Assembly: GCA_016218255.1 (NCBI GenBank)
Contig: JACREN010000002.1
Location: 4,029-68,028, forward strand
Source of the DNA: Candidatus Gottesmanbacteria bacterium
GTDB taxonomy: Bacteria > Patescibacteriota > Microgenomatia > UBA10105 > UBA927
Direction: 5' to 3'
DNA: 64,000 nt
This document shows, in pieces, positions 55-31,618 of this stretch. A program made the translations under genes and the position numbers. Each line of letters begins with the position of its first letter. Within the stretch, counting starts at the first letter, position 1. Under the pieces are notes generated by a model that did not search any database, was not told the origin of the DNA, and saw nothing but the letters and a program-made list of their open reading frames with translations.

Positions 55-1185
55 CTAAGATAGAGTATTTTCCTTTTCATACTTTTTGATAATTTGTTCG
101 AATCGTCTGATAAACCGTTTCTCGGAAAACGTATCAGCCTGTTTCCGACATATTTTTGCATCAAATGAAATTAATTCAAAATCTCGAAAAGCCTTTTTTA
201 ACGACCCAACGGTATAGTCATAAAATAAAATTCCGGTCTTTTCGAAAACAACCGTTTCTCGGATACCGCCGCTTGCGTACGCAATAACCGGCACGCCCTG
301 TGCCATCGCTTCCACCGGTGCCATACCAAAATCTTCATCGATTGCGCACGATAACAGTGCCTTGGCACCAGCATACATGTCAGCCATTCTATTGTCCGGG
401 ACGAAACCACAAAAATGAACCGTCGGACCTGCAATAGATCTTAAACGTCTTTCTTCTGGCCCGGTACCGACAACATACAGGGGAAGCTTCAGGTCATTAC
501 ATGCACGGATTGCCAAATCAATTCCTTTTTGTTTTACCAACCTGGAAACACAAAGGAAATACAAACTCCTTGGCTTATTTAATACCTTAATGGATGGTAT
601 ATGCACCGAAGGATATATGACGATGCTTTTTCGTTTATAATAATTCCATATTCTTTTTTGCACCGTCTTGGAATTCGCAATCAAAATATCAGGACGCTGA
701 GCTCCTTCGAAATCCTTCTTTTTCAACCAGCCAAATAGCGGCGACAGCGCAAACTGAATAAACGGATGCTTCATCCATCGCATTTCATTATATTCGTTAT
801 ATAAATACCTCGGAGGCGTATGAATATATGAAACATGAAGAGTTCTCGAAGAAACCCGGATGGATTTAGAGGAAAACGAATGGGAAGAAGAAATCACCAA
901 ATCATAACCGGACAAATCAAGATGTTCCCAGTACCAAAATAGTATGGGTTTTAGAAAACTCGCGTATGTACTCAAGCGGGGGAAGCTACTCAAAATCGTG
1001 GTCCGGACATCACCGTTCGTTCTTTTTCTGATATCCCACCTATAAGCACGTTGGAGAATGGGAATATACATGTCCGCATCAGGAAACAATCGAAGCAACT
1101 GATACAGAACCCGCTCGGCGCCACCCAGACAAAGCACCGCGTCATGGACAATCGCGATTTTTCTAAATTTTCCATATTGTTTCAT
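55..1185 (-). CDS. glycosyltransferase family 4 (GT-B fold, GT1 superfamily)
   Basis: 376-aa ORF; C-terminal half has GT4 hallmarks (VVGTGPEERRLR; E-x7-E motif EDFGMAPVEAM; QGVPVIA). Confidence 0.8.
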   Translation of the reverse strand: MKQYGKFRKIAIVHDAVLCLGGAERVLYQLLRLFPDADMYIPILQRAYRWDIRKRTNGDVRTTILSSFPRLSTYASFLKPILFWYWEHLDLSGYDLVISSSHSFSSKSIRVSSRTLHVSYIHTPPRYLYNEYNEMRWMKHPFIQFALSPLFGWLKKKDFEGAQRPDILIANSKTVQKRIWNYYKRKSIVIYPSVHIPSIKVLNKPRSLYFLCVSRLVKQKGIDLAIRACNDLKLPLYVVGTGPEERRLRSIAGPTVHFCGFVPDNRMADMYAGAKALLSCAIDEDFGMAPVEAMAQGVPVIAYASGGIRETVVFEKTGILFYDYTVGSLKKAFRDFELISFDAKICRKQADTFSEKRFIRRFEQIIKKYEKENTLS

Positions 1186-1209: not shown

Positions 1210-2385
1210 TTATGGAATAATATCCTTTAAAGAATCATATACTGCTTCAGCAAAATATCTGTTCCCTAATGCATTGAGGTGCTTCCATCCAAAAGGAAAT
1301 TGCATTTCTTCAACCCGAAATAACGAATATGCTAAATTATCCGAGTTTATTCCAAGAGCATTCTGACCGATGTAAACCGGATGGCCTTCAGATCGTGTTC
1401 GAAGCGAAAGCAGTGCCGGATCATGAGATTGTGCAATTTTATCATTAACATCAATAAATATCTCACCCACGTTTTTCAATGTGTCGCGAAGTTGAGAATA
1501 TAAACCCACCGACCAGTGACGATAATCTTGAGCTTCATCAAAATACCATTGAAACGGTGCGAGGGTGACCACGAGCTGAATATTCCTCTTCTTCGTTTGT
1601 CGCTGCATTTCACGAATCAGATACTGGATTTTCTGAAACATAGCTTTCCGAACTTCTGTCAATGTTCCTTTTTCCGTACATCCCAACGTTATCCTTCCTA
1701 ATCCGGAAATTCTATTTGGCGCATACACAACAAAATTGGTTACGGCATACTGGAATAACCATTCAGGCATATGACGGATTAAAAGGCCTTGGACATACAG
1801 CGAATTTAGCCATCCCGGAAATTCTAAATAATTATTTCCGATCTTACGAATAAGACATGACTCATTTGCATCATTAATATCATTCATATTGAAATTCCAA
1901 ATAATCATATCTGGACTTTCATGAGAAAGAATTTCTTTTATATAAACATACTCCTGATCCGGACTGTACCCAGATATACCTGCATTATGTACAATAACTT
2001 TTGGTTTTTTCTGATGAAATAATTGCTCAAGTACCGCTGGATACGCTTGATCGTGAATTACTCCCTGACCATAGGTAAAAGAATCCCCAATCATAACTAT
2101 TTCATAAAAACTTTCTTTACCAGTAAGTCTCGGACGGTAAACAAATCGATAACCGTATTGGTCTGTGCCGTCATATTCACTTATGTAAATATTTTTCTGT
2201 ATAGAATAAATTTTGTTCCTGTCAAGTGAAAATAATAGCGATTTCGTTTTACCTACCTCTGTCACAAACGACCACGGCGAAGGATATGGTTCATAATGTT
2301 GTGCTCGAAGTATCAATTCCAGGCACACAAAGCCAACGAGCAAAGAAAGTGCTGTTGATATGGTGAACAACTCCAATCGCTTCAT
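1210..2385 (-). CDS. SGNH/GDSL-family hydrolase (putative glycan O-acetyl esterase/acyltransferase), N-terminal membrane anchor
   Basis: GDS(L) block MIGDSFTYGQGV near N-terminus after a single TM helix; start placed at internal Met (MMKRLELF...) to avoid 95-bp overlap with upstream gene. Confidence 0.6.
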   Translation of the reverse strand: MKRLELFTISTALSLLVGFVCLELILRAQHYEPYPSPWSFVTEVGKTKSLLFSLDRNKIYSIQKNIYISEYDGTDQYGYRFVYRPRLTGKESFYEIVMIGDSFTYGQGVIHDQAYPAVLEQLFHQKKPKVIVHNAGISGYSPDQEYVYIKEILSHESPDMIIWNFNMNDINDANESCLIRKIGNNYLEFPGWLNSLYVQGLLIRHMPEWLFQYAVTNFVVYAPNRISGLGRITLGCTEKGTLTEVRKAMFQKIQYLIREMQRQTKKRNIQLVVTLAPFQWYFDEAQDYRHWSVGLYSQLRDTLKNVGEIFIDVNDKIAQSHDPALLSLRTRSEGHPVYIGQNALGINSDNLAYSLFRVEEMQFPFGWKHLNALGNRYFAEAVYDSLKDIIP

Positions 2386-2395
2386 CATAACTGCA

Positions 2396-4372
2396 TTATC
2401 GCGCGTGTATCCGCCGAATAGCCTTCTGGAAAATTCCTGGGGTTGAGAACGCACCTCCCGATAACACAATTTGACAGTGATTTTTTGCATAGCGATCAGA
2501 TAAACATGATGCTATCACGTCATTTGCAGCCTGGCTATCAAAAAATCTATAGCGATACAATGCTGCAAGCTCTATAGAAAAATAGCTCCAATCAGGAGCG
2601 AAATCCCGCGCAAGGAGCCATAATTTTTTGGTTTCCATTAAGTCTTTATCTATCAAGGAAAGACCAATTAAATACATAAGTTTTGCATATGCTGTTGGAG
2701 TCTTTGCTGCAAAAATATCTGCATTATTCCGCGTATAGAAAGAAGCATACTCCGGAGCACCAAAATCTATACGCGCAATCTTGGTCCGCAACTCTTGTGG
2801 AAGCGCCACCTGACTTAGTCTGTTTATCGCCAAACCAATAACCGAAGGTGATATTGGACGCTTTTCGAATAGGTATTGTATATATTTTATATGATAATCA
2901 ACGTTTATCGGATCCCAACGAATGGCATTCTCATAAAAAGACTGAGTCTCATCTTGTTTGTTGATGCCCATATCGGTTTTAGCAGTTGCATACATCACCT
3001 CCGGGTCGCGGCGGTTTAACCACAATATACCCTTTTGAACCGCGTATGAGGATGCCAGCAATGCATCCAGGGCATTCTGCTTGTAATACGGAGCCGCATA
3101 CCATGCCCACTGCTTTTTTCCCGGCAGAACGCCGAACAAAACACCGGCCATGGAGGAAAGATAAAAGAGCAGCAGCACAAATAGAAACAGTTTTGTCCGC
3201 ATATATTGTGTGCGAGAGTCTAACGAAAATTGCAGAGATACACTGCCGGATGCAAGCCCAAGGCTCGCCCAAAACAATAACCAAATTGAGGAATAATTTA
3301 GATTGAATTCAAATACGCTATACAAAAGAATGAGAACAATCGGAACAAATAGGGGAGACCAAAAACTGCGGCGCAGTGATATACCCAAAATAAATATCAA
3401 AAGCACGGCGCCTACAAAACCCAACTCCACCACTGTCTCCAGCGGAAAACTGTGGGCATACCAGGAATACGTCTGCGGTGCCTCCTGAAGACGCTTAGAC
3501 TGAAGGAAGAACGTCCCGGGCCCGCTGCCAAATAACGGCCGTTCAGCTATCGCCATAGCCGCCTGCCTCCAATAGCCCCACCGGCTGTCCTGAGTGATCG
3601 GCCGCTTTACAATCTGGCGAATAAGCGCATTGGTTGATTTCTCAAAACGAAAAACGTCGTACCGAAGAGAAATGAATGACACAGCCCCAAACAGAACCAG
3701 AAACAAGCAGGCGAAACTAAAAATAACCCGGCGTTCGATTCGGTCGCGGCGCCATAAAAATTGCCCAAGCAAATATACAACAAGAAGCATCCATGCCGCG
3801 CGGGCAAACGTCAGAATCATACCCAATATAAATACTGAAACTATTACCCATCTCAATTTTTTGAAATCGTTCGTAAAAAAAATCAAAGGGAAAATAGGAA
3901 GCAGAAGATCCGCCAAATGATTATGTCCATAGTTGGCATACAAAAGATTCATGAGGGGTAAAAATTCAGCAAACGATGGGAACAGCATAAATACCCACGA
4001 CAACCCAATCGCGATAAACCCGATGGTAATAAGACTTTTCCGGTACCACATCACTGCGCCATCGGAAGCCACCGAATAAAACAGGATAAAAAGGAGGTAT
4101 CCTTCGATATAACGGATAGACGCGCTGACAGAATAGGCAATACTGTCCGAAAATAATGTCCGGCCTGCCATATAGAGAAGCAATACGATCCAACCCCGAG
4201 ATAGGGAGCGGGGAAGCGGACGAATTGTGAAAGACCCTAACGAAGCATACCGAATCGCATAGAGGATCAAGATGCCGAGCGCCCAAAATATGTCGACGAA
4301 CGGCTGTTTCCCGTCACCCACAAGGAGCGATACGGCAAACAAAAGGCAAAAGGCTACGGTCAGTCGTTTCAT
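2396..4372 (-). CDS. O-antigen ligase (Wzy_C) family polytopic membrane protein with C-terminal TPR-like region; candidate O-oligosaccharyltransferase (PglL/TfpO-like)
   Basis: 658 aa, about 10 predicted TM helices; Wzy_C signature RWGYWR...RPLFGSGPGTF...YAHSFPLETVVELGFVGA; C-terminal soluble repeat region. Confidence 0.65.
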   Translation of the reverse strand: MKRLTVAFCLLFAVSLLVGDGKQPFVDIFWALGILILYAIRYASLGSFTIRPLPRSLSRGWIVLLLYMAGRTLFSDSIAYSVSASIRYIEGYLLFILFYSVASDGAVMWYRKSLITIGFIAIGLSWVFMLFPSFAEFLPLMNLLYANYGHNHLADLLLPIFPLIFFTNDFKKLRWVIVSVFILGMILTFARAAWMLLVVYLLGQFLWRRDRIERRVIFSFACLFLVLFGAVSFISLRYDVFRFEKSTNALIRQIVKRPITQDSRWGYWRQAAMAIAERPLFGSGPGTFFLQSKRLQEAPQTYSWYAHSFPLETVVELGFVGAVLLIFILGISLRRSFWSPLFVPIVLILLYSVFEFNLNYSSIWLLFWASLGLASGSVSLQFSLDSRTQYMRTKLFLFVLLLFYLSSMAGVLFGVLPGKKQWAWYAAPYYKQNALDALLASSYAVQKGILWLNRRDPEVMYATAKTDMGINKQDETQSFYENAIRWDPINVDYHIKYIQYLFEKRPISPSVIGLAINRLSQVALPQELRTKIARIDFGAPEYASFYTRNNADIFAAKTPTAYAKLMYLIGLSLIDKDLMETKKLWLLARDFAPDWSYFSIELAALYRYRFFDSQAANDVIASCLSDRYAKNHCQIVLSGGAFSTPGIFQKAIRRIHAR

Positions 4373-4935
4373 TGCTTGGCATTCCGAATGGCAGCAGTCG
4401 TCTGAAATGAAGCGCTCGCGCGGTCGAATTGGTCCGGCGGCGTGCCCTTTTGCGCCAGACTAAAAATAATCGCCACCGTCGCCGGCTGACCTGCCGGCAT
4501 CGTACAGACAAACGTCAGACTGGAAGCATTGCAATCCGCTCCACCGAGCGTCAATGCACTGTCCGTCAGATACTCTGTCGTAGAAGCACTTACGGATGCA
4601 ATACGAGTCACGGTACCGTCCAGGAGACATCCCAAAGAGGTAGATTCGCCATCAGGATTTGTCAACGTGATACTGGACGATGAAGTCCCGCCCTCCGCAC
4701 ACGTCGAGGTCACTTCCGTTGCATTCCGAACAAGCTGATATATTCGCTCGAGAGAAAAATCACCGTTCTGTTTTACATTCTTTAATACTTCTGATTTTGC
4801 ATTGCTTCGGGTCGTGGTAAAAAATACCTGAGAAATCAAAACACCCACGACAGCCACAATGCCGATCGACACCATGATCTCCAGCAGAGTAAATCCCTGT
4901 TTTTTCCATGAATCATGAACATTTTTTATCGCCAT
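4369..4935 (-). CDS. type IV pilin-like (pseudopilin) with prepilin N-terminal cleavage/methylation motif
   Basis: N-terminus KKQGFTLLEIMVSIGIVAVVG (G-1, F+1, E+5) followed by hydrophobic helix; 4-bp overlap with neighbours. Confidence 0.75.
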   Translation of the reverse strand: MAIKNVHDSWKKQGFTLLEIMVSIGIVAVVGVLISQVFFTTTRSNAKSEVLKNVKQNGDFSLERIYQLVRNATEVTSTCAEGGTSSSSITLTNPDGESTSLGCLLDGTVTRIASVSASTTEYLTDSALTLGGADCNASSLTFVCTMPAGQPATVAIIFSLAQKGTPPDQFDRASASFQTTAAIRNAKQ

Positions 4936-5366
4936 CTTGTAAAGTTGGTTGTGAGCTCGCTTTTATGTTCACCCCGGCCGTCATCCCATGCCACTTTCGA
5001 TGCAACATTCATAACCGGATCAACCCATGTAAAAGTAAGGCTTCTTATGTAGATGCTGTCGACATTCACTGGACATACACTATTAGCAGATGCAGTCAGG
5101 ACATTTGTTTTATCCAGACAATAGACACCGCTTTTTTCTGCAAAACCGGTCCACCCGATATTGCGGAGGTTTCTGGCATACTCTATGCCTTCCTGAGAAT
5201 ATTTTAAGGCCAAACTCCTTGTTTTCCCCTCGTTGATATTCCGAAGCGATGCGGTCGTACCGACAATAATACCCGTTACTAACACTGTAACCACGCCAAT
5301 CACGACTACCGCCTCAACAAGCGATTGGCCAGACTGACCGGATGTTTTATAGAAATCCCAGATCAT
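4926..5366 (-). CDS. type IV pilin-like minor pilin
   Basis: N-terminus SGQSLVEAVVVIGVVTVLV (G-1, E+5) class III signal; 146 aa. Confidence 0.6.
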   Translation of the reverse strand: MIWDFYKTSGQSGQSLVEAVVVIGVVTVLVTGIIVGTTASLRNINEGKTRSLALKYSQEGIEYARNLRNIGWTGFAEKSGVYCLDKTNVLTASANSVCPVNVDSIYIRSLTFTWVDPVMNVASKVAWDDGRGEHKSELTTNFTRWR

Positions 5367-5829
5367 TTATGTCTCCTCCGGTTGAAACCTGTATGCGGTA
5401 TGATTTTACAATTCCGACCATTGTAATCGTTACCGCATCGCTTGAAAGCAGTCCCCGGGTTAACACGCCATAAACAAACGAGGCGGGCACAGGCGAAAAC
5501 GTAATTCCTGAGGGCAACGCGGTAGAAAGCGCATCTCCTACGGCGCCTTCTGTGCACTCTGCAACAACCGTATATGTCGAATCCGTAAATTGTACGGTAT
5601 ATCCCACAAGCTCAGTGCACCCGCTGGTTGGTTTTTTCGATGAAGCGGCAAGCGTCTGGGCATAACGAAGATTATTTTTCATCGTCAGGGCTGCCTGCTT
5701 CAAGCGCTGATTATCATTGTAATTATTATAATTAACGATAAGCCCGCCAACCGCAAGAAGTGAAATACCGATCGTCACGATAAGCTCTATGAGAGTAAAC
5801 CCAGAACGAGATGCAAAAAGCCGCTTCAT
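5347..5829 (-). CDS. type IV pilin-like minor pilin
   Basis: N-terminus RSGFTLIELIVTIGISLLAVGG; 160 aa. Confidence 0.75.
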   Translation of the reverse strand: MKRLFASRSGFTLIELIVTIGISLLAVGGLIVNYNNYNDNQRLKQAALTMKNNLRYAQTLAASSKKPTSGCTELVGYTVQFTDSTYTVVAECTEGAVGDALSTALPSGITFSPVPASFVYGVLTRGLLSSDAVTITMVGIVKSYRIQVSTGGDINDLGFL

Positions 5830-6266
5830 GGACTCTTGACCCCGAAATTATGGGCTGGGGTCTGCGATGCATCAGGGGTGCAGCTGTTACTTGCGGGCGT
5901 TTCTGCTTCAAGGTACGCGCTTACACAGTAGCCGTAATAACTGCCTCCCGAAACATCAGTTGCTTTATACCGGTATACATAATCGGGATCTTTTGGGTCT
6001 GCTGGGATAGACGGCATGTAGGTAGCCACTAAATCAGCACTTAAATTAGACATATCCGTCCAGCTACCGGCCCCGGTACTGGGATAATACCCATTGTCGG
6101 TTCGGTACATCTCGATAGCCGACCGGATCTGCTCGACGTCGCTTTTCCGCTTTGTATCACGGGATCTACGGTTTACCGATCCATACGATACGATACCTAT
6201 AGCAGTCAATATTGCGATAATAGATATCGCAACCAATATCTCCATGAGGGTAAATCCTTTTTTCAT
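5826..6266 (-). CDS. GspG/PulG-like pseudopilin
   Basis: MKKGFTLMEILVAISIIAIL...RDTKRKSDVEQIRSAIEMY (T2SS-G-like N-domain). Confidence 0.75.
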   Translation of the reverse strand: MKKGFTLMEILVAISIIAILTAIGIVSYGSVNRRSRDTKRKSDVEQIRSAIEMYRTDNGYYPSTGAGSWTDMSNLSADLVATYMPSIPADPKDPDYVYRYKATDVSGGSYYGYCVSAYLEAETPASNSCTPDASQTPAHNFGVKSP

Positions 6267-6268
6267 AA

Positions 6269-6712
6269 TTACTGAGCGCTTTTGACGCAGTACAACCCCG
6301 TGTATTCACTTGGTGCTGCGGCAGCTGCACAGTCCGTCACCTCATTGGCTTCTCCCTCAAGACCAGCACAAACACAAAAACTTGCAGCACTACAACTGCT
6401 CCATCCCGTGACCGTTGTGTAATCTGTTCCGCTCTTGGGATCAGTCGGCATACCGTTTGGCAAATATGTCACCGCCAGAGTGCAGGTAGCCGGATATGAT
6501 CCTTTATTGTCTGCATAATACTGCTCAAAACCATTCTGCACTTCCTTCAGATCGTTTTTTCGTCTGTTATCACGCGCCTTCTTTTGCCCTGTGGTATACG
6601 CCGAAACTGCGATCGAAACTAAAATCGCAATGACCGATACCGCCACCAATAATTCCATAAGACTAAAACCTATAGAATGTTTCCCCACCATGCGAGTATT
6701 TGAGTTTTCCAT
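6269..6712 (-). CDS. GspG/PulG-like pseudopilin
   Basis: GFSLMELLVAVSVIAIL...ARDNRRKNDLKEVQNGFEQYY; start moved to internal Met so it does not run into pilD. Confidence 0.7.
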   Translation of the reverse strand: MENSNTRMVGKHSIGFSLMELLVAVSVIAILVSIAVSAYTTGQKKARDNRRKNDLKEVQNGFEQYYADNKGSYPATCTLAVTYLPNGMPTDPKSGTDYTTVTGWSSCSAASFCVCAGLEGEANEVTDCAAAAAPSEYTGLYCVKSAQ

Positions 6713-7413
6713 AATATGGTGATAACGGTTCCTAAAATCAAAAAAGGACCGAATGCAACCCGGCTTTTCCACGTTTTATGTCTAGCTTTCATCAGTATGA
6801 CACCCACTCCAGCGCCCGTCAAGAACGCTGCATACAGCGCCACAACGATGCCTGGATACCCCAAAAGCAGCCCGAGCAGAAACACAAGTTTTACGTCTCC
6901 CAGTCCCATTCCTCGTCCGCCAGTCAATAACCAAAGAAGCAGAAAGAACACGGACGCTCCAAACGCGGAAATCCAAAAAACCTGCGCATGACGGACGTCA
7001 AAAACCGACCCAAGAAGACCTACTCCGATAATCCCCACCACCACCATACTGTCCGGAATTATTTGATATTTAAGATCTGCAAAAAAAATAACAATCAATG
7101 AGCAAAAAATAAGAACATATGCTGATAATTTGGTAATCGAATCAGCAAAATAAAAAAACAGCAATGCGAAACCAACACCAGTCAAAAGTTCAATGGCGGG
7201 ATACTGTAGCGAAAGCTTTTTGTGACACCGACGGCACCGGGCGAGCTGGATCACAAACGATACGATTGGAATAAGTTCGTACCACCGGAGCGTTTTTTTA
7301 CAATGATCGCAATGTGACCGACCATATACCACAGATTGCCCCTTTGGTAGCCGGTCGATAAGGACATTAAGAAATGATCCTATACATAACCCAAATAATC
7401 CTGCCAACCACAT
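6670..7413 (-). CDS. pilD: prepilin peptidase (A24 family) PilD
   Basis: N-terminal Zn-binding CIGSFLNVLIDRLP...SHCDHCKKTLRWYELIPIVSF, multi-TM A24 core. Confidence 0.85.
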   Translation of the reverse strand: MWLAGLFGLCIGSFLNVLIDRLPKGQSVVYGRSHCDHCKKTLRWYELIPIVSFVIQLARCRRCHKKLSLQYPAIELLTGVGFALLFFYFADSITKLSAYVLIFCSLIVIFFADLKYQIIPDSMVVVGIIGVGLLGSVFDVRHAQVFWISAFGASVFFLLLWLLTGGRGMGLGDVKLVFLLGLLLGYPGIVVALYAAFLTGAGVGVILMKARHKTWKSRVAFGPFLILGTVITILWKTQILAWWGNIL

Positions 7414-7443
7414 ACATATATCATACCATGATATACTTCAGCC

Positions 7444-9633
7444 ATGAAACGCGATGCATGGGCGCTTCTTGTCATATCTACGTGTGCAGCCGCATTTTTT
7501 TTCCGGCTGTTCTGGCCTACACCTCTTCTTCTCGTCACACCTGATTTCGGCAGAAGTGATGCATGGCATTTTACCTTTGTCACTAAATTCCTCTTGGGAA
7601 AAAATCTGACTGGGGGAGCACTCCCTATCTGGATACCGGAGCTTGGACGCGGATTTCCGCTTATGGCTGAAGGGCAAACAGGGACATTTTATATTCCTAA
7701 CGTGCTTCTTTACCGATTTTTGGACAGCGTGACCGCATACAATGCATCAATTCTTCTGACAATTCTGTTTTTGGGGTGGGGTATGTATATGTGGGTTCGC
7801 AGAATGAACTGGAGCCGGATCGCCGGATTATTTGCTGCTCTCTCGCTTATGTTTTCCGGCATGACACTGTCGCAACTCCCACATGGCGCGCTTCTTCAAG
7901 GCATAAGCCTTCTTCCGTGGGTACTCTACCTAACACTTCGCCTTTTTCAAACTAAATCCCGTTCTGCAATAGCTATTTGGGCTTTTATCTACTCCCAGCA
8001 GTTGCTTACCGGGTTTCCCCAAGCAGCATTTATCACTATCCTTTTTTCGTTTGCTTACGGCGCATGGCTTCTTCAGGAAAGCTCAACCAAAACAATGGAC
8101 AGCATACGGTTTCTACTCGCATGTGCTGCATCGCTGGGTCTCTCCGCGGTTCAGATTCTGCCGTCATGGGAATTTTTGAATCAGACCACGGTCGCCGGAG
8201 GCATGACTTCGGACGTATCCACATATTTTTCCTACCCGATCAAGCATCTGGCGACGCTCTTGGAACCATTTTTTTTGGGCAATCCAAAATTCGGTACCTA
8301 TCCACCTTTTTTTGCATTTGACGGAAGCATTTTCTGGGAAAACGTCGGCGGCATTGGATGGATTCCTGTTAGTCTCGCCATTATCACCATGATGAAATTC
8401 AGATCCAAAAATATTGCTTTTTTTGCTCTGTCTGTACCGATATCGCTTCTTCTTATGCTTGGTAAATATTCTCCGCTATACCTGGTCTATTCATTTTGGC
8501 CGTTTCATTTATTCCGTGTCCCTTCACGGTTTATTTGGATATTTGTTCTCTCAATCATCATGATTGCATCCTATGCCATCCACCGGATTTGGCGAAACGG
8601 GCGGATCCAAAAAATCGGCGTTCTGGCTGCTATTACTCTACATACCGCAATCTTAACAAACACCTGGTTCTCCTACCAAGCATTTGAACCCGCACACCTC
8701 TGGCTCACACCTCCTGAGGCAATTTCAAGACTACCGAATGATCCAAATATATTTACAGTCGGCTCGGAACCAATACACAACCAATCCTTTCTGACAAACG
8801 GATGGAAATCTATGAAACCCTATACATCACTTCGTAACAGCCTTGCCCCAAACAGCAGCAGCATATGGGGCATCACTTCTGCCAATGTCTACGCGGGTAG
8901 ATTTCTACGGCGACCGAGTATTCTGGCAGAATTCATTGACCATGAGTTTCCCGTCGATAGCCGGGAGGCCACACTCTCAGCGGTGGGGAAGAAGCTTCTA
9001 ACAATATCAGGCATTACTTCAGTTATCGCGGCGGTTCCGCTCACGCAATCTGAACCACCATATCTGGAAAAAATCACAACCCATGACACACTGACCCTCT
9101 GGAATAATCCTGAAGCTGTCCCCAGAGCCTATTTAGCCGACCGAGTCCATGTGGCAACGACCAAAGAGAAGGCATTCGGGATCTTACGCCACGAGGATTT
9201 TATTCCCGGCAAAAGCGTTCTTTTAGAAGACCCCATACATGTGGGCCAAACTACGGATAAGCCAACCGGAACAGCTCAAATAACCGACCGGTCAAACACA
9301 ACACTCACCATATCCGTGAAGGATAACAATCGAGATACAGTTCTCATCGTAACCGATACGTACTATCCCGGCTGGAAGGCGATACTCGACGGATTTGAAG
9401 TGCCTATATTTCCTGCAAATATCCGCCAACGGGGAGTCATCGTACCACCGGGAAACCACACGATACAAATGCGCTATGAACCAAAGAGCCTATTTTTGGG
9501 ATTTGCTATCAGTGTGGTGACGCTCTTACTTCTTGTTATCTTAATGGTGTTTCTTCCTTCTTCTTCAGATCCTCATACTCTTGCAACAGATGCTTCGCCC
9601 GGCCCGCATCGCCCACACAGTCGCGCATCGTGA
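7444..9633 (+). CDS. YfhO-family polytopic membrane protein (GT-C-like glycosyltransferase)
   Basis: 729 aa, about 13 TM helices followed by C-terminal extracytoplasmic domain; YfhO-like architecture. Confidence 0.55.
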   Translation: MKRDAWALLVISTCAAAFFFRLFWPTPLLLVTPDFGRSDAWHFTFVTKFLLGKNLTGGALPIWIPELGRGFPLMAEGQTGTFYIPNVLLYRFLDSVTAYNASILLTILFLGWGMYMWVRRMNWSRIAGLFAALSLMFSGMTLSQLPHGALLQGISLLPWVLYLTLRLFQTKSRSAIAIWAFIYSQQLLTGFPQAAFITILFSFAYGAWLLQESSTKTMDSIRFLLACAASLGLSAVQILPSWEFLNQTTVAGGMTSDVSTYFSYPIKHLATLLEPFFLGNPKFGTYPPFFAFDGSIFWENVGGIGWIPVSLAIITMMKFRSKNIAFFALSVPISLLLMLGKYSPLYLVYSFWPFHLFRVPSRFIWIFVLSIIMIASYAIHRIWRNGRIQKIGVLAAITLHTAILTNTWFSYQAFEPAHLWLTPPEAISRLPNDPNIFTVGSEPIHNQSFLTNGWKSMKPYTSLRNSLAPNSSSIWGITSANVYAGRFLRRPSILAEFIDHEFPVDSREATLSAVGKKLLTISGITSVIAAVPLTQSEPPYLEKITTHDTLTLWNNPEAVPRAYLADRVHVATTKEKAFGILRHEDFIPGKSVLLEDPIHVGQTTDKPTGTAQITDRSNTTLTISVKDNNRDTVLIVTDTYYPGWKAILDGFEVPIFPANIRQRGVIVPPGNHTIQMRYEPKSLFLGFAISVVTLLLLVILMVFLPSSSDPHTLATDASPGPHRPHSRAS

Positions 9634-11500
9634 TGCCTTCGTACAAATAAAGGGTTGGCTGTACCCGCGCAAGATCAGTTTCCCTAGCAGACCGAAAATG
9701 ATCCAATGCAGATGAGCAGTCTTTTAAAAACAGATCCGTAAGACCTGCATACGCATGCGCGTCACTTAGCTGGGTATCACCATCAGTATATATCGCCTTG
9801 GCAAAATACCGTTTGGCATCATCAAGCTTACCGATCCGAAGGAGCGTTTTGCCAAATTCCACCCCTGCACCCGCGTAGACATCCAGTACATCTGCAAGCA
9901 TAAGATGGCGGTAGCGTGCAAGAATACCTTTTTGAGGATCATGATACTGTTCCCACCGCACATTATTAACCGCAAGTACTGAATCCGTAGACGGCGCATC
10001 AGTGAGTCGCACCAGACGGTAAATTAATCCTTCCTGCACCCATGCTTCACCGGCTGAAACCGCCAGGGGATATACTGAAAATATCGGAAACCGGCTCCTG
10101 TTCATCGCGATAAAATCAGTCAAAAACGACTCGCCGGTTTTGGACGGAACGGATAATTTTGGAAAGACACGCGAAAGAACTACTGGATAATCTGCAGTCG
10201 CAAGTCTAGATGCGTGTATGACCATCACATCCGGACGCCGGCCCAATGCATACCGGACATATTGTACCGTAAAAAGCGGTGTATCCCGAGATACAAGCAG
10301 GATGCTGTCGGCATCCACACCCGCAAGAATATCATATGCCAAGGCATCAGCCGTTCTGTCATTTGTGACACCCTGGAACTTCCACATTGTCGCACCCATA
10401 ACCTTCATGGGATAAATAAGCATCAAAATCGCAAACACCCAAAATAACAATGTATTTCGCCGCACTAATTGTAAAGACTGCCAGTATCCCAATCCGATGA
10501 GCACGGAAAAAAGAACATACGAAGGAAGTAAAAACCGCTCATATGTACCCAAGGTAAACCTGTTCGCGAGCGGAAAACTCGCATAAAAGAAAAATACAGG
10601 CCCCAAGGAAATAAGGCCAATCACCAAAAACCAAAACAAGCCTCGCTTGTGGATCCAACACCATACAAAGCCCAATAAAAGAAGCAGTACCCCGACTGTG
10701 GTAAGGTCCAGGACGAGGAATTGCCCATAGGCTTTTAACTGTGTCATTCGCTGGGACAACAATGTGCCGAATGCATTACCGGATACAAACGTACCGTAAT
10801 CTGCGCGGGTGACCAACCGGACAAAGGAGGAGATATCCACAGGCCGATTCCAATTTATAATGGATGGCCCGTGGCCGGCTATCGGAAGATATACATATGG
10901 CAATAATCCGATCAACACATAAAAAGGCAAACGGAAAAACGTGTGCCGATCCAACAATTGCTTGTGAATATATATCCAATACAGCAATGCAGGAACAAAA
11001 AATAGTATGACGTGATGATGACTTAGTGATAATCCAAACACAAACAAAGCCCAATGAAAATATACGGGCTTTTTTGTTTCAGACCAATAAATAAACAGGG
11101 AAAAGAGCAACACAAGGAACAAATCAAAAAGTCCGAACACTTCGGGCGTGATGCTATAGAGAAAAAAAAGATAATTACCGGCGAGTACCAGCGCGGCAAA
11201 AAAACCGACAAAGGATTTTCCTGTAAACCGCGCCGCAAGCGCATACACGATAGTCACAGTTGCAGCGTGGGTGAGAGACGAAAGCAAGCCAACTCGCCAT
11301 GCCGGGGTAAACCAAGGCAACCAATTCAAAAACCAGCCCAACAACGTGTACAACGGATACCCAGGCGGGTGGGGTACGCCAAAGGTCGCAGCCGCCGTAA
11401 CCAAATCTCCGCTGTCGCCGCCAAAAATACCCTTTGTCTGAAACAAGAGAAACAAAAGAAAACTCGCGGCAAAAACAAAGAAGGAAAATCCGCGACCCAT
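9536..11500 (-). CDS. DUF2723 (TMEM260/PMT-like GT-C fold) membrane glycosyltransferase with C-terminal TPR
   Basis: N-terminal motif FGGDSGDLVTAAATFGVPHPPGYPLYTLLGW typical of DUF2723; multi-TM; C-terminal TPR-like repeats; start chosen at Met overlapping pilin stop (ATGA). Confidence 0.65.
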   Translation of the reverse strand: MGRGFSFFVFAASFLLFLLFQTKGIFGGDSGDLVTAAATFGVPHPPGYPLYTLLGWFLNWLPWFTPAWRVGLLSSLTHAATVTIVYALAARFTGKSFVGFFAALVLAGNYLFFLYSITPEVFGLFDLFLVLLFSLFIYWSETKKPVYFHWALFVFGLSLSHHHVILFFVPALLYWIYIHKQLLDRHTFFRLPFYVLIGLLPYVYLPIAGHGPSIINWNRPVDISSFVRLVTRADYGTFVSGNAFGTLLSQRMTQLKAYGQFLVLDLTTVGVLLLLLGFVWCWIHKRGLFWFLVIGLISLGPVFFFYASFPLANRFTLGTYERFLLPSYVLFSVLIGLGYWQSLQLVRRNTLLFWVFAILMLIYPMKVMGATMWKFQGVTNDRTADALAYDILAGVDADSILLVSRDTPLFTVQYVRYALGRRPDVMVIHASRLATADYPVVLSRVFPKLSVPSKTGESFLTDFIAMNRSRFPIFSVYPLAVSAGEAWVQEGLIYRLVRLTDAPSTDSVLAVNNVRWEQYHDPQKGILARYRHLMLADVLDVYAGAGVEFGKTLLRIGKLDDAKRYFAKAIYTDGDTQLSDAHAYAGLTDLFLKDCSSALDHFRSARETDLARVQPTLYLYEGITMRDCVGDAGRAKHLLQEYEDLKKKEETPLR

Positions 11501-12009
11501 TACTGGACGCAGAAGTAGCAGTCGGTGCCGCCGGTAGAAGTCTGCGACTTGCACCCGCTGGAGACTACTGCTCCATCTGTGCTATACGTCGTGTTGGTAT
11601 CGATCTGAAAAGATTTGGACTCCGGCTTGAAACAGACTGCCATATGCTCGGGAGCAGTCGAGGTGACCAGGACTTTCGCCAAATTCCCTGTTCCTGCCAG
11701 ATCCATAAACCGATTTTTGAGTTCTCCGGCGTTGATAAGATCAGTAACGTAGCTGCCCATCGTATCGACCCCTGATGCCGTAAACGATGAGCTTGTTCCC
11801 CAAGGAAAATTTCCCTTGGTGGCATAATAGCGGAGATTCGCGTTATAAAATTCTGCCGTGGTATTTCTCAGTGATGTATCACGACCTTTTTTCAATTGCT
11901 CAAATGGATCAATCGTTGCCAATAGTCCTACTGCCAAGGCACCCAGTAACGCAATAACGATAAGAAGTTCAATGAGGGTGAATCCTTTTTTGAGGTGGGC
12001 AGTATTCAT
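11500..12009 (-). CDS. pilA: type IV major pilin (PilA-like)
   Basis: MNTAHLKKGFTLIELLIVIALLGALAVGLLA; C-terminal Cys-rich segment (GCKSQTSTGGTDCYFC). Confidence 0.8.
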   Translation of the reverse strand: MNTAHLKKGFTLIELLIVIALLGALAVGLLATIDPFEQLKKGRDTSLRNTTAEFYNANLRYYATKGNFPWGTSSSFTASGVDTMGSYVTDLINAGELKNRFMDLAGTGNLAKVLVTSTAPEHMAVCFKPESKSFQIDTNTTYSTDGAVVSSGCKSQTSTGGTDCYFCVQ

Positions 12010-12054
12010 AGGTCTTCTTTAGGTGTAACACACACCAAAAACAATTGTCAAGCA

Positions 12055-13266
12055 CTACTTAAACTGACTGGTGAGATTGTAAATGGGCGTAATAACGGAT
12101 ATCACGATAAATCCTACACCGACGCCCAATACGACCATAATAAGCGGCTCAATGGCAGTGGTCAGACCCCTGACAAGGTGCTCAGATTCCGATTCAAAGT
12201 AACGGGATAGCTTGGTAAGCGTATCGTCCAGCTTCCCGGTTTCCTCTCCCACTTTCATCATCTGCGACACAATCGGAGGAAACACCTCATACTGGCCGAA
12301 CGTTTCACCAAGGGGAAATCCTTTTTCCACTTTCTTGGCAATTTCACTGATTGCCTCGCGGAATAAGACATTACCAAGCGAATCCCGTAAGATATTGAGT
12401 CCTTCCAGGATATGTATACCTGCGGTAATAAGCATTGCGAGCGTTCTGGTAAATTCCACCAGAATAATTTTTTTCTGGAGCTCCCCAAAAAGAGGAATGC
12501 GGAGAATGAGGCTGTCCACCAGGTGTTCGCCGACAGACGTTTTTTTCCACCTCATAAATCCGATAGTCCCGCCGACAGACACCAGGATAATAAGCCACCA
12601 AAAATTCACAAAAAATCCGGACAGGGTAATGAGTACCTGAGTAGATGCAGGGAGCGACATCCCGAAATCCTTATACAATTCCGTCAATTTCGGGACAACT
12701 ACGGTCATCATGACCATAACAACCGCCATCATACCGATGACAATGATAACCGGGTAGATCATAGCGCCGGATACTTTGCTCCGGAATTCCCGCTGCGCTT
12801 CCAGTGTCTCGGCAAGCCGCAAAAGCACCTTATCGAGGGTACCCGATGATTCACCCGCATGCACGAGCGCGATATAAATATTGGAAAAATTTGCCGGATA
12901 CTTTGCCAATGAGTCTGCCAAATTACCGCCGCCCACGATCTGGTGTTCCACGTCCAAAAGAATCCGCGCGAATGCCGGATTGGTCGTCTGCGTACGCAAA
13001 ATCGTCAGGGCATCCGGAAGCGAAAGCCCTGCCACAATCATTGTCGATAATTGACGGGTAAAATTGACGATATCACCGAATCCGACCTTTTTGAATTTTG
13101 CCAATAACGCAGACAGCGATAAGTGTTCCTTGGATTCCGTCAATTTAATAACAAAAAGCTGTTTGTCGCGCAATAATTTCGTCGCAACATCACTACCAGG
13201 AGCTTCAACAAGACCGGAAATCGTTTTCCCTGATGTGTCCCGCGCTTTATAGGAAAAAAATGCCAT
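12055..13266 (-). CDS. pilC: type IV pilus assembly platform protein PilC (GspF family)
   Basis: 403 aa, two GspF repeats, 3 TM; N-term MAFFSYKARDTSGKTISGLVEAPGSDVATKLLRDKQLFVIKL. Confidence 0.85.
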   Translation of the reverse strand: MAFFSYKARDTSGKTISGLVEAPGSDVATKLLRDKQLFVIKLTESKEHLSLSALLAKFKKVGFGDIVNFTRQLSTMIVAGLSLPDALTILRTQTTNPAFARILLDVEHQIVGGGNLADSLAKYPANFSNIYIALVHAGESSGTLDKVLLRLAETLEAQREFRSKVSGAMIYPVIIVIGMMAVVMVMMTVVVPKLTELYKDFGMSLPASTQVLITLSGFFVNFWWLIILVSVGGTIGFMRWKKTSVGEHLVDSLILRIPLFGELQKKIILVEFTRTLAMLITAGIHILEGLNILRDSLGNVLFREAISEIAKKVEKGFPLGETFGQYEVFPPIVSQMMKVGEETGKLDDTLTKLSRYFESESEHLVRGLTTAIEPLIMVVLGVGVGFIVISVITPIYNLTSQFK

Positions 13267-13271
13267 ACCGG

Positions 13272-14324
13272 TTAATATTTAAGTAATCTTCCCAGCTCTT
13301 CCGGCCGCACCGCATAGGCTGTCGCTGTTTCTGCACTGATTTTGCCTTCCTTTACCGCGCGGGCAAGCGATGTCTCAAGGGTCATCATGCCCAGCTCTGC
13401 CGATGTCTGGATGACGTTGTCTAAAAGATGTGTCTTGCCTTCCCGAATCGTGTTTCGTACTGCAGGAGTTCCAGTAAGGACTTCTGCCACTGCCACACGG
13501 CCTCCTGCCACTGCAGGAACCAGTCGCTGGGAAAAGACTCCTTCCAGAGCAAAAGAGAGCTGCAGCCGCACCTGGCCCTGCTGGTTCTCCGGAAATACGT
13601 CCACAATACGGTCAATCGTCTGCGCCGCAGAATTTGTGTGCAGCGTGGCAAAGACTAAGTGTCCGGTTTCTGCTACAGTGAGCGCCGCCTGAATCGTTTC
13701 AAAATCACGCATTTCTCCCACCAGCACCACATCCGGATCCTCCCGCAGGACGCTGCGAAGCGCTACCGTCCAGGAATGCGTATCCTGATGCATTTCGCGC
13801 TGGGAAATGATGGAGAATCCCGGCGGATACACATATTCAATCGGGTCTTCAATCGTGACAATATGCGTCGCCTTTGTCTGATTAATGCTTTGAATCATCG
13901 CAGCCAGTGTCGTGGATTTTCCGTGCCCGGTCGGTCCGGTAACTAACACCAGCCCCTGACGCAATCCGACGAACTGTTTGCAAATAGTAGGGAGCCCCAA
14001 CTCATCAATCGATCTGATTTTTGATGGGATGAGCCGAAAATCCGCAGCTACTGTGCCTTTTTGATAGTAAACATTCGCACGAAACCTGCCCACCTGGGTG
14101 GCCACGGAGTAGTCGATTTCTCTATTGGTCAAAAACAATTCCTTTTGCTGGGGAGTAAATGTGGCAAAAACAAGCTGCTCCACGTCGGAAGGGGTCAGTG
14201 CTCCCGTTCCACCGATCGGCCCAAGTTTTCCTGAGACCCGAAGCATGGGTGCAAACCCAACGAGCAAATGGAGGTCTGCCGCTTCCAACCTGGCTGTTTC
14301 CGTAAATAATTGTTGTATATCCAT
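13272..14324 (-). CDS. pilT: twitching motility ATPase PilT
   Basis: Walker A VLVTGPTGHGKSTTLAAMI; PilT-type ...IVTIEDPIEY...; 350 aa. Confidence 0.85.
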   Translation of the reverse strand: MDIQQLFTETARLEAADLHLLVGFAPMLRVSGKLGPIGGTGALTPSDVEQLVFATFTPQQKELFLTNREIDYSVATQVGRFRANVYYQKGTVAADFRLIPSKIRSIDELGLPTICKQFVGLRQGLVLVTGPTGHGKSTTLAAMIQSINQTKATHIVTIEDPIEYVYPPGFSIISQREMHQDTHSWTVALRSVLREDPDVVLVGEMRDFETIQAALTVAETGHLVFATLHTNSAAQTIDRIVDVFPENQQGQVRLQLSFALEGVFSQRLVPAVAGGRVAVAEVLTGTPAVRNTIREGKTHLLDNVIQTSAELGMMTLETSLARAVKEGKISAETATAYAVRPEELGRLLKY

Positions 14325-14325
14325 A

Positions 14326-16068
14326 CTAGTCCTGTGCTACCCTTAGCACTTCTTCAAGCGTTGTCACGCCTTCGATCGCCTTCATGTAGCCGTCCTGCTT
14401 CATCGTTATCATACCGTCATTGATCGCCTGATCTTCTATAGTTTTCATCGGCGTGCGGGCCAATATCAGTTTACTGATTGCCTCAGTCACTGGGAATACC
14501 TCAAACACACCCAACCGCCCGAGATATCCAGATCCGCCGCAGGTACCGCATGGCTGGCCGTCCACCGTTCCTTTGCCCCGGTATAGCTTGATCGGTTTAT
14601 CTTTTTGAAGCAGATTTCCAAGAACCGACGCGATATCTGTTTTCACTGATTCCTCAGGATCATATTCTTCCCGGCACGTCCCGCACACGCGACGGGCGAT
14701 ACGTTGACCAATCACTGCATTGAGGGCAGATGCCACCAAAAACGGCTCAGCGCCCAAATCAAGCAACCGTGGCACCGCACCTGCCGCATTATTTGTGTGG
14801 AGCGTAGAGAAGACCAAGTGTCCAGTCAGAGCAGCCTGTATAGCTAAATCTGTCGTTTCATTATCGCGGATTTCTCCCACAAGAATGATATTCGGATCCT
14901 GCCGCAGAAATGAACGTAATCCCGTCGCAAACGTCAATCCTGCTGTCGGATTTATCTGCACCTGATTGACACCGGCGATTTCGTACTCGACCGGGTCTTC
15001 AAGCGTCATGATATTCACCCGCGATGTATTGAGCTTGGCAAGCACAGCATAGAGCGTCGTGGTTTTGCCGGACCCGGTAGGTCCGGTGACCAGAATAATG
15101 CCATGCGGCCGGAGTACATTTATTTCAAGATTCTTAAGCGCCGTCCCGCGGAGTCCCAACTCCGGAAGCGTCGGAATTCCACCGGATTTCTTCAGCAAAC
15201 GCATGACTATCTTTTCCCCATGGACTGTCGGCAGTGTGGATACACGGAGGTCCACCTCAGAATCACCCATTTTGAAATTAAACCGTCCGTCCTGAGGAAT
15301 ACGTTTCTCGTCAATTTTCATATCCGCCAAAATCTTTATGCGCGATACCACTGCTTCCCGTAATCCCCGGGGAAGCGCAAGTCTCTCCTGCAAAATACCG
15401 TCAACACGATACCGCACGCGGGTATCTCCAATCTGCGGCTCTATATGTACGTCTGATGCACGAAGCCTCATGGCTTGCTCTAAAATCGCGGAAACAATCT
15501 GAGCGATCGGCGCCTCCCGTATGACCTCGCCGAGTTTCCCTGCCTCGTATGTCTTGACCGAAAGCGGAGCAGTCTCAGCCAGCGCCGCAGACACATCCTC
15601 ACCCAAATTTTGGGTATAGACATCTTCAATCGCTGATACAATGTCTTCCTTTGTACCCATAAACGGCAAAACGTGCTTGGCTGACTTTTTTTCCAAAAAC
15701 TCAATCACCTGAAAATCCAATGGATCGAGCATCGCAACAGATAACTCGCCCTTCTTTTCATCAAATGAAAAGGGGACAAGCGTATAGCGCCTCGCGACTG
15801 CTTCGGGGATAAAATTAACAGCATTTGGAGCTATGGCTTTGCCGGCAAGTATCACGAAGGCAATACCCATGGCTTTCGCCCTGGCCGCAACCAGATCGTC
15901 TTCTGTCACCATGTGTTTACGAATTAGTAATTTATCGAGGGCCTCTCCGGAGCTTAAAGACTCCGAGTTAATGGCGTCCGCCTGTTCGCGGGTAAGATGT
16001 TTTTGTTCAACGAGAACACTTAATAAATCAGCACTTGAGGCAGGCATACAAACAAAATCAAAAGGCAA
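14326..16068 (-). CDS. pilB: type IV pilus assembly ATPase PilB (GspE family)
   Basis: N-terminal GSPII_E_N-like domain, Walker A VTGPTGSGKTTTLYAVL, tetracysteine CGTC...CGTCGGSG. Confidence 0.85.
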   Translation of the reverse strand: MPFDFVCMPASSADLLSVLVEQKHLTREQADAINSESLSSGEALDKLLIRKHMVTEDDLVAARAKAMGIAFVILAGKAIAPNAVNFIPEAVARRYTLVPFSFDEKKGELSVAMLDPLDFQVIEFLEKKSAKHVLPFMGTKEDIVSAIEDVYTQNLGEDVSAALAETAPLSVKTYEAGKLGEVIREAPIAQIVSAILEQAMRLRASDVHIEPQIGDTRVRYRVDGILQERLALPRGLREAVVSRIKILADMKIDEKRIPQDGRFNFKMGDSEVDLRVSTLPTVHGEKIVMRLLKKSGGIPTLPELGLRGTALKNLEINVLRPHGIILVTGPTGSGKTTTLYAVLAKLNTSRVNIMTLEDPVEYEIAGVNQVQINPTAGLTFATGLRSFLRQDPNIILVGEIRDNETTDLAIQAALTGHLVFSTLHTNNAAGAVPRLLDLGAEPFLVASALNAVIGQRIARRVCGTCREEYDPEESVKTDIASVLGNLLQKDKPIKLYRGKGTVDGQPCGTCGGSGYLGRLGVFEVFPVTEAISKLILARTPMKTIEDQAINDGMITMKQDGYMKAIEGVTTLEEVLRVAQD

Positions 16069-16172
16069 AAATCAAAATGCAAAACGACATATGTATTATT
16101 GCCGCTTTTCTACTATAATGCAAGGGATTTACTTTTGCATTTTACCTTTTAAATTTTTATTTTCTTTTTTGT

Positions 16173-16817
16173 ATGCATGCATATATTATCATCGGGGGGA
16201 CAAAGGATATACGCATGACGGAAATTCAGGAAAGGCTTAAAAAGGATCATATTTCTCCATTTGATATCATCGCCCTCAATTCTCCTGACGGAACGATTGG
16301 GATAGACCGAGTACGCGAATTTCAACACAATCTCATGTTTATTCCATATCACTCTAAACAAAAAATGGGGGTGATCTCAGACGCCGAAACATTAACCATT
16401 GAAGCACAAAATGCACTTCTGAAAACCCTGGAGGAGCCGCCTGCCCACACGATACTACTACTGGAAACAGCTAATCCCGACTTCCTCCTGCTCACCATTC
16501 TTTCCCGCTGCCAGATAATCCGTCTCAAGGGAAATCCGGATGTACCAACAATCGATGTTTGGTCGGCATTCGCAGGACCCATTGGTAAACGCATCCAGCT
16601 CGTGGACGAAATAGCAAAAACGCGGGACGAGGCAAAACAATGGGTCGAAAAGGCAATTTTTTCCGTCCGCCACGCCATGCTCCTTGAGCATTCCATACGT
16701 TATGCTGGGGTACTCCGCCGCCTTCTGGCTGCACGAAGCCATCTGGCAGCAAACGTCAACCCAAAACTGGTCATGGATGCCGTCGTTCTTTCCGAAGAAC
16801 ATGCCCCTGCGGACTGA
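16173..16817 (+). CDS. holB: DNA polymerase III delta-prime-like clamp-loader subunit
   Basis: AAA+ clamp-loader box AQNALLKTLEEPP, sensor-1 SRC; short 214-aa form. Confidence 0.6.
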   Translation: MHAYIIIGGTKDIRMTEIQERLKKDHISPFDIIALNSPDGTIGIDRVREFQHNLMFIPYHSKQKMGVISDAETLTIEAQNALLKTLEEPPAHTILLLETANPDFLLLTILSRCQIIRLKGNPDVPTIDVWSAFAGPIGKRIQLVDEIAKTRDEAKQWVEKAIFSVRHAMLLEHSIRYAGVLRRLLAARSHLAANVNPKLVMDAVVLSEEHAPAD

Positions 16818-31439: not shown

Positions 31440-31618
31440 ATATGCAGTAGAGCATACCAGGAAATGGCCAAAAAGCAAGCCCCACGGCCCTTTGTCAGAA
31501 AGATGTCAGGAAAAGATATGAAGCCTGTCAAGGACAACGCAACGTACCATCATATAATTCATTTACGAACGTGTGTTGGCCACCACTGGACACGCTAACA
31601 GCTATCCTTTACCATAGA

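Follow-up and report, generated by a model that had tools for sequence, protein, structure and literature searches.

A TMEM260-like GT-C glycosyltransferase gene paired with a type IV pilin gene in Candidatus Gottesmanbacteria

Human TMEM260, the loss of which causes a congenital heart and kidney syndrome, is the sole studied relative of the bacterial DUF2723 proteins, and no function was assigned to the bacterial proteins in the literature searched. Here we describe a DUF2723 gene that directly follows the probable major pilin gene of a type IV pilus locus, in a 64-kb window (the whole stretch of DNA that was analysed) of a contig from Candidatus Gottesmanbacteria, an uncultured, ultra-small bacterium of the Candidate Phyla Radiation (CPR)/Patescibacteria, Microgenomates. 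TMEM260 consists of a GT-C membrane "wrist", where dolichyl-phosphate-mannose is bound, a Rossmann-like "palm" with the catalytic base D441, and TPR "fingers" that hold the extended acceptor peptide (bioRxiv 10.64898/2026.03.17.711096). Residues D52, H67, R264, Y267, R355, and D441 were determined by mutagenesis to be needed for activity (bioRxiv 10.64898/2026.03.17.711096), the inactivity of the D52A mutant having been known earlier (PMC10214176). The window protein resembles TMEM260 in having the same three modules, with the C-terminal TPR-like repeat on the non-cytoplasmic side, but the two are ~28% identical and sequence alignment does not extend to the TPR part. They further differ in that the window protein carries GGDSGD instead of GGDSGE, is presumed to use a bacterial polyprenyl phosphate donor instead of dolichyl phosphate, and is encoded inside a type IV pilus operon, whereas the IPT-domain acceptor sequon of TMEM260 is absent from the window pilins.

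The gene arrangement has its counterpart in Pseudomonas aeruginosa TfpW, the D-arabinofuranosyl transferase of group IV pilins, a 646-aa GT-C enzyme with 11 membrane helices and a periplasmic TPR, which is encoded immediately 3′ of pilA and glycosylates the pilin, modifying Ser/Thr from a polyprenyl-phosphate sugar (bioRxiv 10.1101/2020.04.19.049825). The window enzyme shares with TfpW the position of its gene immediately 3′ of the major pilin gene, a multi-pass GT-C layout of ~650 aa with ~11 helices and an external C-terminal TPR, and an acidic motif in the first external loop; TfpW, compared by description only, is Emb/ArnT-like with DDX and the proline-rich chain-length motif YX6PFX7P, whereas the first-loop motif in the window is GGDSGD. 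The D-arabinofuranose precursor genes, which the TfpW type has, were not found among the Pfam-annotated open reading frames (ORFs) of the window. By analogy with TfpW as it is described, the best reading would be that the cassette works like Pseudomonas pilA-tfpW with a different GT-C family.

Other known systems are further removed. The tfpO gene also lies directly after pilA, and TfpO/PilO modifies the pilin on the membrane's outer face (bioRxiv 10.1101/2020.04.19.049825; PMC11841053), but TfpO/PilO and PglL have a Wzy_C fold and transfer preassembled undecaprenyl-pyrophosphate oligosaccharides, while the Wzy_C domain of the window resides on a separate, non-conserved gene (Table 1). The PMT/POMT enzymes (GT39) of fungi and actinobacteria are likewise GT-C proteins with a polyprenyl-phosphate-mannose donor and Ser/Thr acceptors, and a weak PMT_2 match was found in the window protein, but this protein has a Rossmann-like domain and TPR and lacks a MIR or WW-like luminal domain. 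The Streptococcus mutans Pgf system, composed of the GT2 PgfS and the YfhO-like GT-Cs PgfM1 and PgfM2, is a precedent for the YfhO family in protein O-glycosylation, although a PgfS-type GT2 is absent from the window. In a study of Saccharibacteria pili, pilin O-glycosylation was given by software prediction only.

The DUF2723 enzyme and its active site

At the junction of the two genes (11498-11502, minus strand) the sequence is TAATG, in which the pilin stop and the DUF2723 start share one base; the original prediction had read an ATGA overlap here. Translated from this start, the DUF2723 product is 654 aa long and identical to an NCBI entry named "DUF2723 domain-containing protein", while the 666 aa given earlier correspond to no start codon, the longest ORF, with a GTG start, being 672 aa. 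The DUF2723 hallmark noticed earlier (GGDSGDLV...HPPGYPLY) is present, and PF11028 (TMEM260-like) was matched over residues 29-181 with 78.7 bits against a cut-off of 24.2 (E 6.2e-22). In a phmmer search, residues 8-452 matched residues 31-487 of the human TMEM260 chain (PDB 9rql) at E 2.4e-43, and a profile built from the alignment of 27 orthologues of the enzyme (A1) matched the human TMEM260 structures 9rql, 9rqm, and 9rqn at E 8e-62. In HMMER and MAFFT alignments, the TMEM260 residues D52, H67, R264, Y267, R355, and D441 correspond to D29, H44, R232, Y235, R322, and D406 of the window enzyme. All six are invariant in the 27 orthologues and almost universal in a family sample of 81 sequences, and they are kept in all 24 pilus-linked members of that sample, bar one alignment gap at D29.

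The AlphaFold2 model of the enzyme (pLDDT 85, pTM 0.83) contains ~11 membrane helices. Foldseek searches against the PDB matched its membrane part to the GT-C enzymes ALG12, PglB, STT3, DPY19, and Emb, and its tail to the TPR proteins OGT, PilF, and designed CTPRs, and the A1 profile matched consensus TPR proteins at 1.5e-8. The model, the Foldseek matches and the profile thus back the layout originally proposed, a GT-C enzyme with multiple membrane helices and a C-terminal TPR. Judged by the alignments and the model, the window enzyme is a bona fide member of the TMEM260 family of GT-C enzymes and apparently catalytically active. The TPR module is its least conserved part, with a mean identity of 45% vs 54% for the membrane core. 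At position 32 (11405-11407), the last of the GGDSG[D/E] motif, Asp was found in 22 of the 23 aligned pilus-linked sequences and Glu in human TMEM260 and in 51 of the 56 unlinked bacterial homologues; Asp at this position is a possible subfamily signature of the pilus-linked clade.

Membership in two other families was rejected. The PMT_2 match reaches 26.0 bits, below the cut-off of 26.1, and is accompanied by no MIR match, which speaks against PMT (GT39), and no Wzy_C match was obtained on the 9536-11500 protein, which speaks against PglL/TfpO. A tblastn search against plasmids gave a single DUF2723 match, too weak to be informative. The DUF2723 frame is split into two ORFs at two related loci (L039:7947-9798 and L044:7977-9955), which could reflect a frameshift, pseudogenisation or an assembly error.

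Pairing of the enzyme gene with a pilin gene

The pairing was followed in a close set of 44 genome-scan loci, whose DUF2723 proteins are 42-66% identical to the window enzyme, in a diverse set of 80 much more divergent DUF2723 loci from a metagenome scan ranked against human TMEM260, and in ten further homologue loci that were looked up (L125-L134); bacterial DUF2723 loci are numerous, more than 560 having been confirmed in one metagenome scan. A pilin-coding sequence lies directly 5′ of the DUF2723 gene on the same strand in all 44 loci of the close set, across which the gene order is pilB, pilT, pilC, pilin, DUF2723, convergent YfhO, pilD, and minor pilins. The Pfam annotation places pilB, pilT, and pilC directly upstream on the same strand in the window too, as had been stated originally. 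The unit of pilin, DUF2723, YfhO, and pilD is intact even at a locus where pilBTC is inverted (L036), and the pilin-enzyme pair is kept where an insertion separates pilC from the pilin gene (L106 and L126, with an RHH/PIN toxin-antitoxin pair at L126:5747-6411). At another locus an unannotated 435-aa gene lies between pilin and enzyme (L125:5693-7000).

Pilus linkage was also found for enzymes of 29-36% identity from Curtissbacteria and other Patescibacteria (L080, L100, L109, L122, L124, L125-L127, L129, and L131-L133). Among the 80 diverse loci, a prepilin gene lies directly 5′ in 10, including L080, L100, L109, L122, and L124, whose enzymes are 29-33% identical to the window enzyme and which carry a different pilin type. 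A truncated pilin is found upstream of one enzyme of 32% identity (L084), two loci that lack pilBTC in the vicinity (L089 and L113) have an opposite-strand prepilin gene immediately 3′ of the enzyme gene, and in L098 a prepilin gene is 3 kb from the DUF2723 gene. Neither a prepilin motif nor pilus genes were found in the available flanks of ~60 of the 80 divergent loci. Seven of the ten added homologues have a pilus context, including one from Curtissbacteria and one from a "Patescibacteria group bacterium", and no prepilin or pilus genes were found in the available flanks of the other three (L128, L130, and L134). The adjacency on which the original prediction was built is therefore conserved in 44/44 Gottesmanbacteria-type loci and in Microgenomates relatives at ~30% identity. 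In a neighbour-joining tree of the 81 enzyme sequences, computed with no support values, every pilus-linked or pilin-adjacent member falls in one clade. Collectively, the pairing of pilin gene and DUF2723 gene is genuine and well conserved, a pilin-accessory cassette whose GT-C family has no earlier tie to pilins in the literature searched.

The one-base overlap, from which translational coupling had been proposed, is real in the window but peculiar to this genome and a few others; the spacer from pilin stop to enzyme start has a median of ~30 nt over the 44 loci. Three spacers contain a strong terminator-like hairpin with a T-run (L025:7880-7946, L028:4599-4649, and L033:7903-7964), and ~8 carry a TATAAT box 6-7 nt ahead of the ATG (L010-L013, L015, L016, L019, and L039), which suggests a separate promoter and possibly a leaderless transcript. 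The hairpins resemble an arrangement of the Pseudomonas pilin-accessory cassettes, in which a terminator is often present after the pilin gene and, placed after pilA, damps accessory-gene expression (PMC11841053). A promoter and terminator consensus scan of 7300-16300 in the window returned a number of sites not above that in shuffled sequence.

The upstream partner had been called pilA-like, and this was borne out by its coordinates, which are the exact ORF boundaries, by its N_methyl match, and by the homology of residues 10-95 to residues 1-84 of Neisseria PilE (E 2.8e-5). It begins with a class III signal peptide (MNTAHLKKG/FTLIELL), with predicted cleavage after G9. The globular part contains 24% Ser+Thr vs 12% in the neighbouring proteins, with patches rich in Ser/Thr at residues 72-79 and 155-162. 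Within the first patch, T72 is conserved in 93% of the orthologues, and S74 aligns with PilE S63, the established O-glycosylation site of the Neisseria pilin. Comparison of 42 orthologous pilins indicated that Cys 126, 153, 164, and 167 are invariant, the C-terminal CxxC being CYFC; this pattern points to two disulfides, or else a metal site, in the head of the pilin.

Proposed pilin glycosylation and competing explanations

The enzyme is probably a protein O-glycosyltransferase of the TMEM260 family of GT-C enzymes that forms a pilin-accessory cassette with the pilin gene, and it most likely glycosylates this pilin, because an entire bacterial lineage retains the pairing. The original prediction of a dedicated pilin O-glycosyltransferase holds as to the conserved adjacency and the complete TMEM260-type active site, whereas the pilin as acceptor and mannose as sugar are what we infer beyond these, as are the sites and the biological role, be it pilus stability, host recognition or phage evasion. 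In the mechanism proposed, the prepilin would be anchored in the cytoplasmic membrane and expose its globular domain to the exterior; the enzyme would sit in the same membrane, with its Rossmann-like and TPR modules likewise outside. The membrane core would bind a polyprenyl-phosphate-hexose, with mannose as the default guess because all mannose- and phosphate-contacting TMEM260 residues are kept; the extracytoplasmic TPR-like repeat would grip an extended pilin stretch, and the Rossmann-like domain would set a Ser/Thr hydroxyl beside D406, acting as base. Sugar transfer would be inverting and would precede the joining of the subunit to the pilus. The sugar would likely be placed on the Ser/Thr cluster 72-79, where the alpha-beta loop begins, on the C-terminal loop 155-162 that is bounded by Cys, or on both, and the YfhO-like GT-C encoded next to the enzyme may extend the glycan or modify other pilins.

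Several observations weigh against this interpretation. No paper linking DUF2723/TMEM260 with pilins or CPR pili was found in the literature searched. The pilus-linked members form a single clade, so the linkage may reflect one ancestral event followed by vertical inheritance, and synteny with the pil operon extends to two unrelated genes, gyrB and holB. A search for donor-pathway genes in the annotated parts of the window yielded only the GT4 at 55-1185, and no polyprenyl-phosphate-sugar synthase (GT2), GtrA-like gene or flippase. The metazoan sequon P-x5-P-x3-G-P-x2-[GA]-G-G-x2-[TS] does not occur in the major pilin, in any of the five minor pilins or in the 42 orthologous pilins, although this sequon marks the metazoan substrate class and not the enzyme family. 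Pilins in general are often rich in Ser/Thr. In a mirror-tree test on 30 loci, with the shared divergence of PilB/PilT/PilC removed, the correlation of the pilin globular domain was not significant with the TPR module (partial r 0.17, p 0.08) nor with YfhO (r 0.21, p 0.06); strong correlations were obtained among DUF2723, YfhO, and PilD, which look like a shared membrane-protein rate effect. Finally, the YfhO-like GT-C is almost as well linked as the DUF2723 enzyme and could be the real pilin transferase.

A more elaborate version of the pilin reading, in which a Microgenomates clade of TMEM260 homologues is specialised for type IV pilins and forms a two-enzyme extracytoplasmic system with the conserved YfhO-like GT-C, the TMEM260-like enzyme starting a glycan on an extended pilin segment read by its TPR and the YfhO-like enzyme extending it, is tentative, and we hold it to be possible though doubtful. 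If true, it would give the first function for bacterial DUF2723 proteins and a prokaryotic counterpart of the human disease enzyme, and the host-contact pili of ultra-small episymbionts would be sugar-coated. Pili are the leading candidates for the organelles by which CPR bacteria attach to hosts, take up DNA, and are entered by phages, and glycosylated CPR pilins would alter readings of host range, phage evasion, and metaproteomic pilin identification. Since a pilin gene with its own glycosyltransferase is already known from Pseudomonas, the cassette is an extension and not a new principle. The pilin-tied enzyme clade provides a concrete, testable substrate for the bacterial DUF2723 branch and a simple system for how TPR and Rossmann-like modules pick acceptors.

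The alternative that survives best, though unlikely, is a protein O-glycosyltransferase with other or wider clients, such as the minor pilins, a tip adhesin, other pilus components, or secreted proteins in general. The active-site and architecture evidence fits it equally well. A general enzyme could be housed with the pilus genes on account of the abundance of its pilin clients, and such broad specificity is known from actinobacterial PMT and Neisseria PglL. In addition, the locus holds five more prepilin genes with 17-24% Ser+Thr, and the prepilin next to the L089 and L113 enzymes resembles the minor pilin mp2, not the major pilin. However, the adjacent gene is the first and best-conserved pilin after pilC, in 44/44 loci and in distant relatives, general pglL is unlinked to the pilin gene while the pilin-specific TfpO and TfpW are linked (bioRxiv 10.1101/2020.04.19.049825), and TMEM260 itself is protein-specific (PMC10214176), all of which favours the pilin as the substrate.

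It is very unlikely that the acceptor is not a protein at all, the DUF2723 and YfhO-like pair decorating an envelope glycopolymer or lipid, e.g. a teichoic-acid-like polymer, and being co-expressed with the pilus genes because pilus passage needs envelope remodelling. Many GT-C enzymes (ArnT, Emb, and YfhO) use lipids or polymers, Emb being among the Foldseek matches, and teichoic acids are glycosylated by YfhO homologues (PMC5836110). DUF2723 and YfhO also occur together without a pilin (L096 and L120), and unlinked homologues are found in glycan-synthesis clusters (L128). Against this stand the base D441 of the acceptor-facing Rossmann-like domain, kept as D406, the peptide-gripping TPR module of a protein-specific enzyme, likewise kept, and the strict adjacency to the pilin gene, not to envelope genes. 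That gene order was simply inherited, with no functional link and an incidental one-base overlap, would draw on the single clade, the synteny of gyrB and holB, the lack of a significant co-evolution signal, and a coupling that is not conserved, with terminators or -10 boxes between the genes in some relatives, but is improbable, as the pair survives inversion, insertions and a move to a non-pilBTC context at ~30-38% identity, and functional pilin-accessory cassettes typically have a terminator behind the pilin gene (PMC11841053).

Neighbouring genes and layout of the locus

The features of the pilus locus in the window are listed in Table 1. The minor-pilin-like genes have syntenic orthologues in the relatives.

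Table 1. Genes of the type IV pilus locus and modules of the DUF2723 enzyme (window positions).
Feature	Position	Strand	Evidence
pilB-type assembly ATPase	14326-16068	-	Pfam T2SSE 3e-123, MshEN 4e-14
pilT-type retraction ATPase, 350 aa	13272-14324	-	Pfam T2SSE 1e-44
pilC platform protein	12055-13266	-	Pfam T2SSF 1.4e-62, two copies
Probable major type IVa pilin, 169 aa	11500-12009	-	Pfam N_methyl 1.8e-7
TMEM260-like (DUF2723) GT-C glycosyltransferase, 654 aa	9536-11500	-	PF11028 6.2e-22
Membrane GT-C core, residues 1 to ~375	10376-11500	-	AlphaFold2 model
Predicted donor-site codons	D29 11414-11416, H44 11369-11371, R232 10805-10807, Y235 10796-10798, R322 10535-10537	-	TMEM260 alignment
Extracytoplasmic Rossmann-like domain, residues 383-500	10001-10354	-	Five strands flanked by helices in model
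D406 codon, equivalent of TMEM260 catalytic base D441	10283-10285	-	Invariant in alignments
C-terminal TPR-like helical repeat, residues 505-649	9554-9988	-	Seven helices in model; presumed acceptor-binding module
YfhO-like GT-C membrane protein, 729 aa	7444-9633	+	Pfam YfhO 3e-14, PTPS_related 5e-6
pilD prepilin peptidase	6670-7413	-	Pfam A24_N_bact 3e-33, Peptidase_A24 2e-13
Five minor-pilin-like genes	6269-6772, 5826-6266, 5347-5829, 4926-5366, 4369-4935	-	N_methyl in 4/5
Wzy_C (O-antigen-ligase-like) membrane protein, 658 aa	2396-4372	-	PF04932 2e-19
GDSL-like hydrolase	1210-2490	-	
GT4 glycosyltransferase	55-1185	-	

A second GT-C gene, which the original prediction had left out, encodes the YfhO-like protein. 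This gene and the DUF2723 gene run towards each other and share 98 nt at their 3′ ends (9536-9633). The YfhO-like gene is present in nearly all relatives, among which a convergent overlap of ~20-130 nt recurs; it is co-directional in L106, and separated or replaced in L127 and L129. The C-terminus of the YfhO-like protein matched the NCBIfam models PgfM1 (3e-6) and PgfM2 (6e-5), both far under the family cut-offs. It may be a second pilin glycosyltransferase or an envelope glycosyltransferase.

The Wzy_C gene has a 4-nt overlap with the last of the minor pilin genes and is followed by the GDSL-like hydrolase gene and then the GT4 gene. A homologue was found in 1/44 related loci (L002), and from this distribution the Wzy_C gene, which lies at the distal end of the locus, seems to be an accessory that varies between strains. 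The two independent pilin-modification routes that had been proposed from the DUF2723 and Wzy_C genes are thus not established, the conserved partner of the DUF2723 enzyme being the YfhO-like GT-C. Sequence searches of the PDB with the YfhO-like and Wzy_C proteins returned no matches.

Some further features were observed at the related loci. In L089 (25-8521) and L113 (25-3170), neither of which has a pilBTC operon around the enzyme gene, the DUF2723 gene adjoins an orphan prepilin gene. In L089 the two lie beside genes for YfhO, a DegT aminotransferase, GNAT, a methyltransferase, GT2, and PMT_2, a cluster that looks like a self-contained glycosylation island. A PA14/GLEYA-domain protein, a possible adhesin, is encoded among the minor pilins of L133 (11493-12425), and a Bac_transf sugar-phosphate transferase gene adjoins pilB in L129 (1176-2234). 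The Gottesmanbacteria-type pilus locus also occurs in many metagenome-assembled genome records whose title is "uncultured Gammaproteobacteria bacterium" (L006-L008, L012, L014, L016-L018, L021-L023, and others); their PilB, PilT, and PilC are 70-80% identical, and the organism labels look wrong. Elsewhere in the window, two sizeable ORFs without a Pfam match are located at 31571-33289 (plus strand, 572 aa) and 24792-25847 (minus strand, 351 aa), and a tyrosine recombinase is encoded at 34779-35732 on the minus strand (Phage_integrase 1e-43).

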